The notes under the pieces: model-generated
What the model saw: only the letters and a program-made list of their open reading frames with translations
Told to the model about the DNA's origin: nothing
Database searches by the model: none
Program-made: the position numbers and the translations under genes
Source of the DNA: a virus
Taxonomy: Duplodnaviria > Heunggongvirae > Uroviricota > Caudoviricetes
DNA: 42,396 nt
Virus record (IMG/VR): IMGVR_UViG_2861064056_000003
Reading direction: 5' to 3' (one strand)
In this document: in pieces, positions 19,296-21,417 of the stretch
Position numbering within the stretch: position 1 is the stretch's first letter
Layout of the letters: every line of letters begins with the position of its first letter

Positions 19296-19367
19296 TAAAA
19301 ATCCTCACCGGAACCGGAAATACCCAAAATGAAAAAATACTAAAAACGAGCGAGTTTTTGCGCGTCT

Positions 19368-19404
19368 ACCGACCCTCGGTGTTTTGGATTTCGGAAAGGA
19401 CCCG
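19368..19404. other. Putative cos region (cosN-like palindrome ACCGACCCTCGGT with cosQ-like CGGAAAGGACCCG)
   Basis: CGGAAAGGACCCG matches the recalled lambda sequence next to the right cohesive end; 13-bp palindrome 12 bp away on the Nu1 side. Confidence 0.35.
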
Positions 19405-19648
19405 CGACCAGGGGGCTATCTCCCTTTCAGGACAGGAATTAGGGGCTCGCATCAGGTTCATCAAACTCAACTGTAGCCTCGCGGCGTACTTGTTTGCATA
19501 CATCAGCTTTGTGTATCTGATTATCAGCGTAAGCTTTCACTTTGGCAGCGAGCCATCCTTTTGTGCTGTATCGATAGACTACCGAACAAGTTTTCCATAT
19601 ATGTATATATCTTGAACTTATTGATATCATTACAGAAAAACAACAACC

Positions 19649-19909
19649 ATGAGAACGCAAAAAATGAACAGAGAAAAAATTGAAGCCTTAATGAGCGTAA
19701 TATTAAAAGAAGCTGACCCAAAAAAGTTTCCTGAGAAGTTATCAGAGGACGCCATCGTATCTTTTTATCGTGCGAACTCCTCTTATCTAAATTGTTCAAC
19801 TTTAAGAGAATGGCTAAGCGGCGAAGCAGAGCCTTCAGATGAGATACTTCAGAAGATTATGGTTCAGAACAACTGGCGCGCAACAAAATGGTCAAATCAG
19901 TTACCTTAA
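19649..19909 (+). CDS. Hypothetical small protein (possible moron near cos)
   Basis: 86 aa ORF in AT-rich DNA opposite to the late operon; no clear RBS. Confidence 0.25.
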   Translation: MRTQKMNREKIEALMSVILKEADPKKFPEKLSEDAIVSFYRANSSYLNCSTLREWLSGEAEPSDEILQKIMVQNNWRATKWSNQLP

Positions 19910-19923
19910 TCTGTTGAATGTGT

Positions 19924-19947
19924 GCCGCCTTAAAACAAAAAGGCGGC
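19924..19947. terminator. Hairpin between convergent genes (GCCGCCT-N10-AGGCGGC)
   Basis: 7-bp GC stem between the 3' ends of 19649..19909 (+) and 19969..20163 (-); weak U-tract. Confidence 0.3.
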
Positions 19948-19968
19948 CTCTCGTTAAAGTAAATTACC

Positions 19969-20163
19969 CTATTTTCCACCAAGGCATGAAGCCTCTGCCC
20001 CGGTTGAATCAATACAACCACCGTTCGCAGTAGTAATCTTCGTACCCGGCGCGATCATCACGTGTTTAATACTGCTGCCGTCAGCGCGAGTCGCTTCGGT
20101 GTATGTCGAATGTGTGCAGCCTGCCAGCGTGAAGAACGCGACAGCTAAGAGAAGTTTTTTCAC
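19969..20163 (-). CDS. Small lipoprotein (signal peptide with lipobox LAGC)
   Basis: MKKLLLAVAFFTLAGC start; 64 aa, three Cys; directly after the endolysin-like gene. Confidence 0.5.
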   Translation of the reverse strand: MKKLLLAVAFFTLAGCTHSTYTEATRADGSSIKHVMIAPGTKITTANGGCIDSTGAEASCLGGK

Positions 20164-20170
20164 GTTTTAC

Positions 20171-20650
20171 CTACGCTTCTGAGATAGATTTCTCAGCATT
20201 CACCAATGGAAGTGATTGTGGAACATCCGTTTGACCTGCTGGCCAGCGGTAGCCTGTTACGCGGGAACGAGGAAAAGCTTTGATATTTACTTCATCTGCC
20301 TGGTTGCCCCCCAAAATCATTAAATCCCCGGCGGCATTTTTCCCGACAACAAAGCCGACGTGACCACCGCCAGACCGAGACAGAATAGCAATGCATCCAT
20401 AGGCGGGTTCCTTCAGTTCATTACCCCAATCGAGATAAGAATTCGCAGACTCAAAACGCGTTGAGCGAATACCCGCACGTTCCAGCATTGCCCCGGTGAA
20501 AGCAGCGCACCACGGTGTTTCGTCATCCTTAATGCCGCCGCGTTTGATATCTTTCCAGTACTGCACAATTTCTGCAGCATGTTGCTTCCCTTTCATTTCC
20601 CGAATGCCGAGGTTTTTTCGAGCCTCGATTAGCCATTTAGGATCCGTCAT
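20171..20650 (-). CDS. Putative endolysin, cysteine peptidase type (CHAP/NlpC-P60-like)
   Basis: Candidate catalytic Cys (ETPWCAAF) and His (GGHVGFVVG); located in the lysis cassette. Confidence 0.5.
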   Translation of the reverse strand: MTDPKWLIEARKNLGIREMKGKQHAAEIVQYWKDIKRGGIKDDETPWCAAFTGAMLERAGIRSTRFESANSYLDWGNELKEPAYGCIAILSRSGGGHVGFVVGKNAAGDLMILGGNQADEVNIKAFPRSRVTGYRWPAGQTDVPQSLPLVNAEKSISEA

Positions 20651-20922
20651 TACCTGTCTCCTGTTATTTTTGAAATATTCCCTCGTGCCCGCCAGACAGC
20701 AATACAGATGGTGAGGTTGAGAAAGAACTCTGCGGGATCAACCTGCGTATATTTCCCGTAAAAAATTCGTAGGGCTATCCACGCAGCAGACAGAATCGCG
20801 AGGTAAGCAGTTAGTGAGATGAAAAAACGATAGCGGCCTGTTTTTTGAAAAAACATCAACCGTAGTGCCAACATCAGACAAATAATTGCATTGGCATTGA
20901 TGAGGACAGAGTGCAGGGTCAT
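20650..20922 (-). CDS. Small membrane protein, holin/antiholin-like
   Basis: 90 aa with 2-3 hydrophobic segments, between the holin and endolysin genes. Confidence 0.4.
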   Translation of the reverse strand: MTLHSVLINANAIICLMLALRLMFFQKTGRYRFFISLTAYLAILSAAWIALRIFYGKYTQVDPAEFFLNLTICIAVWRARGNISKITGDR

Positions 20923-21305
20923 TATTTCATCCCCTTATCTGATTTCCATAAACGAGCTTGTGACATGATCCGCAACAGTGATGTAACGCTGATTACTGAT
21001 GCAACCAGTGCACCAATGGCGGGAGAGACTTTTACTGTTACGGGAGGGTTCAGGTGACTCAGCACCGCGTTCAGAATACCGGTAATGATGGCTGACGCTG
21101 TCTCAGCGCAATACACACCGCCAACAAACGAAATGAGTGCGAAAATAACCTGCTTCCAGAATCGATGCTGCCCGGACGACAACACATAGAGAGCTGCGCC
21201 TGCCAGCGCACAGATCATCACTGCAGGTGTTGCCTCAGGAAATAACGCAGCAAACGTCACCCCCGCCGAGCCAGCAGCAACGCCAGCGGTTAGAGGTTCA
21301 GACAT
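20922..21305 (-). CDS. Holin
   Basis: Membrane protein with several TM segments; start taken at internal ATG (MSEPLTAG) with RBS AGGAAA; first gene after the Q-like gene and tR'-like terminator. Confidence 0.5.
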   Translation of the reverse strand: MSEPLTAGVAAGSAGVTFAALFPEATPAVMICALAGAALYVLSSGQHRFWKQVIFALISFVGGVYCAETASAIITGILNAVLSHLNPPVTVKVSPAIGALVASVISVTSLLRIMSQARLWKSDKGMK

Positions 21306-21320
21306 GATTTTTCCTGATTC

Positions 21321-21349
21321 AGAAACGACAAAACCCCGCCGTGGCGAGG
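21321..21349 (-). terminator. tR'-like intrinsic terminator between the Q-like gene and holin
   Basis: Minus strand CCTCGC-CACG-GCGGGG hairpin followed by TTTTGTCGTTTC. Confidence 0.45.
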
Positions 21350-21417
21350 TTCTTAGAAATTTGGCAACATACCAAATTAGCGTCAAATATGGCCTATTTT
21401 GTTCGTTTTTGCAAGCA
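21350..21417 (-). promoter_or_regulatory. Probable late promoter / Q-utilisation region
   Basis: Between the Q-like stop and the terminator; TTGCAA and TATTTG hexamers on the minus strand with 19-bp spacing, so exact elements are uncertain. Confidence 0.3.

Follow-up and report, generated by a model that had tools for sequence, protein, structure and literature searches.

We find that the window, by which we mean the whole stretch of 42,396 nucleotides analysed here, very probably carries, at 19403..19296 (minus strand), the cos site of an E. coli prophage with a lambda-like head and a contractile tail. The order is cosQ-cosN-simple cosB-terS; judging from the sequence, we give this reading a probability of roughly 0.85. 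The site combines a cos of lambda type with a simple cosB that is N15-style in layout but belongs to another sequence class, and as such is an ordinary instance of a well-known kind. We favour the lambda-type reading because of the 13-nt identity at cosQ, the gpA-type large terminase (TerL), the assignment of the small terminase (TerS) to the Nu1 PHROG, the record ends of relatives, the start of homology at cosQ, the dyad pattern and the position of the R3-like element. The first five of these points also support packaging of the cos type, which an earlier sequence-only reading of this DNA had proposed. That the virion ends lie at this site is a prediction made by homology only. All relevant genes are on the minus strand, on which the cos region reads, 5' to 3' from 19404 to 19293, CGGGTCCTTTCCGAAATCCAAAACACCGAGGGTCGGTAGACGCGCAAAAACTCGCTCGTTTTTAGTATTTTTTCATTTTGGGTATTTCCGGTTCCGGTGAGGATTTTTAATG.

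On the plus strand, positions 19392-19404 read CGGAAAGGACCCG. The reverse complement (19404..19392), CGGGTCCTTTCCG, agrees at 13 of 13 positions with lambda (J02459, 48472-48484), where the sequence lies directly left of the right cohesive end; the lambda record used for the comparison reads ...ACGGGTCCTTTCCGGTGATCCGACAGGTTACG/GGGCGGCGACCT/CGCGGG... (slashes here and below mark nicks). Within this lambda-identical stretch lies the cosQ heptamer GGGTCCT, the packaging-termination signal, at 19397..19403 on the minus strand. A 7-bp cosQ is highly conserved among lambda-like phages (PMC4669245). Taken alone the heptamer is not significant, with 3 matches in the window against 2.6 expected. The exact 13-mer is found only once in the whole window and in none of 100 dinucleotide shuffles, so that the cosQ-like motif claimed by the sequence-only reading is borne out; the alignment to lambdoid cos regions that was proposed there as a check likewise returns a cosQ context of 13 nt identical to that of lambda. 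Two details of that reading have to be corrected. Its placement of the motifs upstream of the small terminase gene holds on the minus strand only, where they lie 73-109 nt 5' of the terS ATG, and the gap between its palindrome and the cosQ-like motif measures 11 bp, not 12 bp.

All relatives examined have the cosQ motif in the corresponding position. It also coincides with a sharp mosaic boundary: relatives whose TerS is 84-87% identical are 80-90% identical to the window from cosQ on, but in the 200 nt upstream of cosQ (19404-19603) the same relatives are only about 50% identical, that is, unrelated.

Directly downstream of cos the window encodes a Nu1-type TerS and a gpA-type TerL. The terS gene (18729..19295, minus strand) codes for 188 amino acids of the Nu1 family and matches phrog_57 with E = 3e-39 over residues 1-185. 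This PHROG also takes in lambda Nu1 (1e-76), N15 gp1 and the TerS of Aeromonas phage phiARM81ld, to which the window protein is 46% identical. The relationship to Nu1 rests on phrog_57, since direct BLASTP against lambda Nu1 finds similarity in the C-terminal part only, and that weak (E = 6e-4). Over its first 50 residues TerS aligns to the winged helix-turn-helix (wHTH) region of Nu1, with G26, P28, V29, G32 and G34 invariant. This wHTH assignment comes from the alignment only, as the single-sequence AF2 model of TerS has a pLDDT of 42; searches of TerS against Pfam and against PDB sequences gave no match. The terL gene (16880..18742, minus strand) carries the Pfam domains GpA_ATPase (2.8e-46) and GpA_nuclease (5.9e-64) and matches phrog_15 with 1e-245, which confirms the lambda A-like large terminase that the sequence-only reading had named. 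Its start was taken from the annotation of the identical genes in ON470624 and in the E. coli ST131 strain JJ1887.

For the small terminase the public annotation differs from ours. On the identical JJ1887 prophage RefSeq/PGAP gives only the 3' half of terS, as a 'hypothetical protein' of 102 aa (L040, 20667-20972), and both the N-terminal DNA-binding half of terS and cosB are unannotated in that record. The full open reading frame of 188 aa is supported because phrog_57 covers residues 1-185 and because the phiARM81ld TerS aligns from residue 1.

With sensitive BLASTN the intergenic DNA leads to the Aeromonas phages phiARM81ld, PhAER-1/2/5 and PCAh2. In phiARM81ld and PhAER-1/2/5 the match breaks off at the terminal base, first or last, of the linear record as deposited; in PCAh2, which is a partial genome, the match is internal. 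The phiARM81ld record ends on the right with ...GGGTCCTTTTTTGCACCTTTTTCCCTTGCG and begins on the left with GGGCGTTAGACC/CGCATGAAATCACTCG.... The PhAER-1 record runs in the opposite orientation and has GGGCGTTAGACC as a 12-nt repeat at its two ends, which is the usual signature of filled-in 12-nt cohesive ends. Moreover, GGGTCC is found 30 nt before the record end in the phiARM81ld/PhAER group, as in lambda. At its right end PhAER-5 (L007) carries the 12-nt cohesive-end sequence followed by two extra T (GGGCGTTAGACCTT), a probable library or assembly artefact at a physical end, whereas PhAER-1 ends cleanly. Vibrio phage HY01 was set aside as a source for the cos junction: its record is permuted and starts at the terS ATG, so that it contains no junction. 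Two papers citing phiARM81ld contain no discussion of cos.

A wider set of 19 distinct cos sequences was assembled from an IMG/VR pattern scan and TerS-based searches; a scan of genome contigs added three loci only. These sites share GGGTCCTTTC...ACCG-n-G/GG........CG/CGCAAAAAC, and about 8 bp between the invariant flanks (...ACCGnG/GG and CG/CGCA) vary freely. In this consensus the search pattern accounts in part for the left flank but not for the right one. Beyond CGCAAAAAC the family splits into groups with different cosB and TerS, some of them lambda-like (for example SerU-LTIIb) and some of the window type, and this split matches the modular picture of the lambda-like phages (PMC4669245). 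None of the 27 IMG/VR and 10 metagenome contigs has an end at the predicted nick; L058 ends inside cosQ, which is most likely an assembly end.

From the record starts of relatives, the dyad symmetry and the spacing we predict the cohesive end in cosN to be 5'-GGTCGGTAGACG-3' (19363..19374, minus strand), separated from cosQ by a spacer at 19375..19396 on the same strand. The predicted nicks fall between 19375 and 19374 on the minus strand and between 19362 and 19363 on the plus strand, with an uncertainty of about +/-2 nt, and the axis of the cosN dyad would lie between 19369 and 19368. Homology alone is ambiguous by a few bases, because in the family the distance from the first cosQ base to the predicted nick is 29 nt and not 30 nt as in lambda, N15, Gifsy-1, phiARM81ld and the Vibrio HY01-like IMG/VR contig L063, and because the left flank is AG or GG and not CG. 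We favour the register 19374..19363 because three independent arguments, namely spacing, the N15 precedent and dyad symmetry, agree on it.

As to spacing, the distance from the nick to TATGAAAA is 17 nt at the predicted register in the family members that are lambda-like and of the SerU-LTIIb type, just as in lambda, N15 and Gifsy-1; in the window the register brings the R3-like core to bp 56-64, close to the bp 55-63 contacted by lambda TerS. The N15 precedent is the annotated end ...GTCCG/CGCAGATTCTCGCT, which parallels ...AGACG/CGCAAAAACTCGCT of the window. The symmetry argument starts from the 16-bp cosN of lambda, which has partial two-fold rotational symmetry involving 10 of 16 bp (PMC4669245). 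Averaged over the 19 family sites, the 16-bp dyad score is 4.26 of 8 pairs at offset 29, compared with 0.9-3.2 at ten other offsets; as a positive control, lambda, N15 and phiARM81ld score 5/8 at their true offset, and cosN of the window has four of the eight pairs symmetric at the predicted register. Paired changes keep the symmetry, with C4:G9 in most members and A4:T9 in L031, L036 and L037, and the Enterobacter mori site GGTCTGCAGACG carries a perfect 10-bp palindrome, GTCTGCAGAC, on the predicted axis. The predicted right nick is flanked by CG (19362-19361) and the predicted left nick by AG, of which only the G at -1 is invariant in the family. A CG dinucleotide next to each of the two nicks is highly conserved in lambda-like phages (PMC4669245).

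The interior of the overhang is diverse. When the window (19363-19374) is compared with the aligned positions in L013-L039, L056-L060, L075 and L004, overhang positions 3-9 are the most variable among the 19 sites, next to nearly invariant flanks, and at least 13 different 12-mers occur. The published emphasis is on overhang variation at bp 7-12 only, whereas here positions 3-9 vary most. Near-perfect palindromes occur among the overhangs (GTCTGCAGAC, GTACGCGTAC). Searching the literature for the overhang sequences gave no match.

It is conceivable, though rather unlikely, that the cos site is right and only its register is different. The cut could then be CG/AGGGTCGGTAGA/CG (19376..19365), or the overhang could be 11 nt long and keep the 30-nt cosQ spacing of lambda, which is exact in lambda, N15, Gifsy-1, phiARM81ld and L063. 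The register 19376..19365 agrees with the published CG-flank rule, as 19378-19377 and 19364-19363 give CG-N12-CG (PMC4669245), and places the variable bases mainly at overhang positions 5-12, nearer to the published rule that bp 7-12 vary. The dyad score speaks against it, with a mean of only 2.74/8 at the corresponding offset 27 against 4.26 at offset 29. It would also give L025 a right flank of GG, whereas offset 29 gives CG/GGGCGGGAGCGG/CG for this site, and it would add 2 bp to the distance that separates the nick from TATGAAAA and R3 in lambda, N15 and Gifsy-1, a spacing reported to be critical. In N15, finally, which reads ...TCCG/CGCAG, the first CG lies inside the overhang. Much less credible still is a function of the interrupted palindrome ACCGA-GGG-TCGGT (ACCGACCCTCGGT, 19368..19380) itself, whether as a symmetry element of cosN or as an intrinsic terminator with a T-run on the plus strand. 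The sequence-only reading had called this feature a 13-bp palindrome; in reality it has 5-bp arms (ACCGA/TCGGT, the slash here parting the arms) and a 3-nt spacer. It does overlap the left half of cosN, and a terminator scan of the plus strand (19367-19390) scores TACCGACCCTCGGTG followed by TTTTGGATTT as resembling an intrinsic terminator. Inverted repeats of the 5-3-5 type are, however, found at the chance rate (51 in the window, 41 +/- 6 in shuffles), the arms are lost in SerU-LTIIb and in most members of the cos family, and the centre at 19374 is 5.5 bp off the inferred dyad (19369/19368, the slash marking the axis). We therefore rejected the palindrome as a symmetry element. We rejected it as a terminator as well, since no credible plus-strand gene ends upstream and since terminator-like matches in the region are about as frequent as in shuffles (2 against 1.2 expected). 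We judge the palindrome to be a chance feature.

Two further explanations concern the site as a whole. It could be a relic of a defective prophage which is no longer used for packaging. The almost clonal carriage would fit, as 442 of 5,426 complete E. coli genomes (about 8%), many of them ST131, contain the prophage, with at least 99% identity in 412 of these 442, which is what vertical inheritance gives; the RefSeq annotation of terS as nothing but a truncated hypothetical protein of 102 aa points the same way. We nevertheless regard a relic as improbable. Both terS and terL are intact full-length open reading frames, the lysis, head and contractile-tail gene set of JJ1887 appears complete, and cosQ, the cosN flanks and R3 have all been kept in comparison with relatives in other hosts that are 80-87% identical. 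The other explanation is headful (pac) packaging with a merely coincidental lambda-like string. With a TerL of the gpA family, a TerS of the Nu1 family, a 13-mer absent from all 100 shuffles, a conserved cosQ/cosN/R3 geometry and discrete record ends in relatives, this explanation has hardly any probability left. We thus retain the reading as a lambda-type cos site.

The prophage around the site has, according to the JJ1887 annotation, head genes of lambda-like type and a contractile tail resembling that of P2. The hybrid virion module (L040 20959-39429; about 1-18742 in the window) comprises lambda-type terminase, W, portal, C protease, D, E and FI, and these head genes are followed by genes for a P2-type baseplate (V, W, J, I), sheath and tube. 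Head proteins of a similar lambda-like kind are also encoded by the phiARM81ld/HY01 group of TerS relatives. A BLAST search for near-identical phages found only ON470624. This record (ON470624.1, L001), deposited as 'Escherichia phage vB_EcoM-705R4, complete genome', is a 27-kb prophage segment predicted by PHASTER from a draft genome. We did not accept it as evidence for the virion ends, as its own ends follow from the PHASTER prediction and are unrelated to cos, which is internal near 21,100. Between the lysis cassette (21386..19969) and cos there is a small divergent gene (19649-19909, plus strand) for a protein of 86 aa that belongs to phrog_5191 and has no Pfam match. It is followed by a GC-rich hairpin (gccgcc...ggcggc, 19920-19950), which Q-dependent late transcripts would have to read through to reach terS.

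Between cosN and terS the window is compact, with only 67 bp from cosN to the terS ATG, which is at bp 80 from the predicted left end (191 in lambda, 89 in N15). The stretch begins with the flank CGCAAAAAC, nearly invariant across the cos family, and continues as an A/T-rich spacer (CGCAAAAACTCGCTCGTTTTTAGTATTTTTTCATTTTGGGT, 19322..19362, minus strand) at the position of the I2 segment of lambda (described in PMC4669245). Next comes a candidate TerS binding site, ATTTCCGGTTCCGGTG, at 19306..19321 on the minus strand (bp 54-69), which contains two TTCCGG repeats. This R3-like element, TTCCGGTTCCGG, is the single upstream element of cosB and is conserved in the Aeromonas, Enterobacter and L063 relatives. 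Its core spans bp 56-64. In lambda R3 comprises bp 50-65, of which TerS contacts bp 55-63, and in N15 R3 comprises bp 48-60 (PMC9026076). A complex cosB as in lambda, 21, phi80 and Gifsy-1 (R3-I1-R2-R1) has three R elements and an IHF site upstream of terS; here there is one R-like element, and no WATCAANNNNTTR-type match to the IHF consensus occurs in 19250-19480. The arrangement is that of a simple cosB, with one R element, located where R3 lies (about bp 48-65), a terS start soon after it and an inverted copy in terS. In the simple cosB of N15, the single R3 has a partner within the TerS gene, an inverted rR2 some 200 bp further on (PMC4669245).

The inverted copy in the window, an rR2-like version of the R3 core, reads TTCCGGTTC (19107..19115, plus strand) and lies within terS, where it falls on the E-P-E codons of the variable linker, at 195 bp from the R3-like site. 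The match between the window's own two sites is 9 nt long, a length reached in 30 of 300 shuffles and thus weak alone. The pair becomes convincing only because the arrangement is conserved in relatives. Perfect inverted matches between R3 and terS are found at the same place in phiARM81ld and PhAER-1 (12 nt) and in L063 (13 nt), in each case with none in 300 shuffles, so that the copy occupies the same position within terS in three lineages. Moreover, the intragenic copy co-varies with the R3 flanks of its own lineage, being CATTTCCGGTTC in Aeromonas, GGTTTCCGGTTT in the Vibrio-like L063 and TTCCGGTTC in the window, and it falls in a protein linker that is otherwise variable. HY01 (L011, nt 190-201) and L063 (nt 1365-1377) have an identical intragenic motif, AAACCGGAAACC, which in L063 matches the upstream GGTTTCCGGTTT repeat perfectly in inverted orientation. 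In a comparison with phiARM81ld, identity is 76% in noncoding cosB from nick to ATG and 57% in the terS coding sequence; both this difference and the abrupt onset of similarity at cosQ noted above indicate that the noncoding DNA is constrained.

We suggest the following course of packaging, which draws on the sequence and the literature by analogy with lambda and N15 as regards TerS binding, nicking and the packaging steps. The Nu1-family TerS would bind at the TTCCGG repeats of the R3-like element, some 55-65 bp from the end, and the inverted copy in terS, at a distance of about 200 bp, may assist as an accessory site. Bound TerS could then position two gpA-family TerL subunits on cosN, and nicks staggered by 12 bp would produce 5'-GGTCGGTAGACG-3' overhangs. 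Packaging would start at the cos end and run in the direction of terS and the head genes, in which window coordinates decrease. When the next cos of the concatemer is reached, cosQ (GGGTCCT) and cosN would jointly trigger the terminating cut.

Two aspects appear modestly novel. These are the conserved and co-varying pair of R3 and intragenic copy across phages of Enterobacteriaceae, Aeromonas and Vibrio-like type, and a cohesive-end interior that seems to diversify freely with preserved symmetry. Going further, it is possible, although we hold this with somewhat less than even confidence, that the TTCCGG-repeat R3 and its co-varying inverted copy in terS define a distinct packaging-specificity class of lambda-like terminases which is common to the lambda-headed myoviruses of Enterobacteriaceae, Aeromonas and Vibrio. 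In such a class a TerS dimer might span the roughly 200 bp between two sites without IHF, and the interior of the cohesive end might diversify freely among close relatives while compensatory changes keep the dyad. The site adds a second N15-type simple cosB (R3 plus intragenic inverted copy), unrelated in sequence and conserved in three bacterial families, which is relevant to the question of how lambda-like terminases are anchored in the absence of IHF; cos packaging as currently understood is unaffected. For practical purposes, the predicted ends of the virion chromosome are now placed within about 2 nt for a prophage of about 8% of the complete E. coli genomes. This can be used in prophage annotation, in the design of induction and PhageTerm checks and in the prediction of satellites or cosmids that the terminase could package. 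The truncation of the prophage's small terminase gene in RefSeq is exposed as well.

The site resembles lambda in several respects. The cosQ heptamer and its 13-nt context are identical, the left half of cosN is G-rich and agrees at five of six positions (GGTCGG in the window, GGGCGG in lambda), the right flank is CGC, and the dyad-symmetric positions -1/13, 2/11 and 3/10 are common to both. The R3-like core at bp 56-64 corresponds to the lambda TerS contacts at bp 55-63, and both have a TerL of the gpA family, a TerS of the Nu1 PHROG and the order cos-terS-terL-W-portal. In contrast to lambda, cosB of the window takes up only about 67 bp before the ATG (bp 80 against 191), without the I1 IHF consensus and without upstream R2 and R1, and its R elements are TTCCGG repeats where those of lambda are CGTTTCCtTTCT. 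The predicted overhang GGTCGGTAGACG is identical to GGGCGGCGACCT of lambda at 6 of 12 positions, five of them among the six of the left half, a count that depends on the chosen register; the distance from cosQ to the nick is 29 and not 30 nt, and the left flank is AG and not CG. Unlike lambda, the prophage encodes a P2-like contractile tail.

Outside the Enterobacteriaceae the closest TerS relatives are those of the Aeromonas phages phiARM81ld (KT898133) and PhAER-1/2/5, with 44-47% identity; L063 has 35%. These phages and L063 share with the window GGGTCC, a distance of about 30 nt, a 12-nt end, an A/T-rich spacer, (T)TTCCGG repeats at bp 53-66, an ATG at bp 79-82 and an inverted R copy in the terS linker. 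They differ from it in the overhang, which is GGGCGTTAGACC or GGGGTGTAACCT, in exact CG flanks and in the 30-nt cosQ spacing, and of the cosQ context only GGGTCCTTT is in common. HY01 has a protelomerase, whereas the element in the window is a prophage integrated in the chromosome.

With N15 the window has in common that only one R element lies upstream, at the place of R3, a terS start soon after it (bp 80 in the window, bp 89 in N15), an inverted R copy about 200 bp distal inside terS and a cosQ of the lambda type; the right cosN flanks are very similar (CG/CGCAGATTCTCGCT in N15, CG/CGCAAAAACTCGCT in the window). The N15 overhang matches that of lambda at 10 of 12 positions and the window overhang at 6 of 12. 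The function of R3 and rR2 has been tested genetically in N15; their counterparts in the window are candidates. The R sites themselves are unrelated, GGTTGTTGTTTAAT-like in N15 and TTCCGGTTCCGG in the window, and the recognition-helix region of the window TerS differs from that of both N15 and lambda. Because of these differences in the R sequence and in the recognition-helix region, the window shares the architecture of N15 but not its specificity class.
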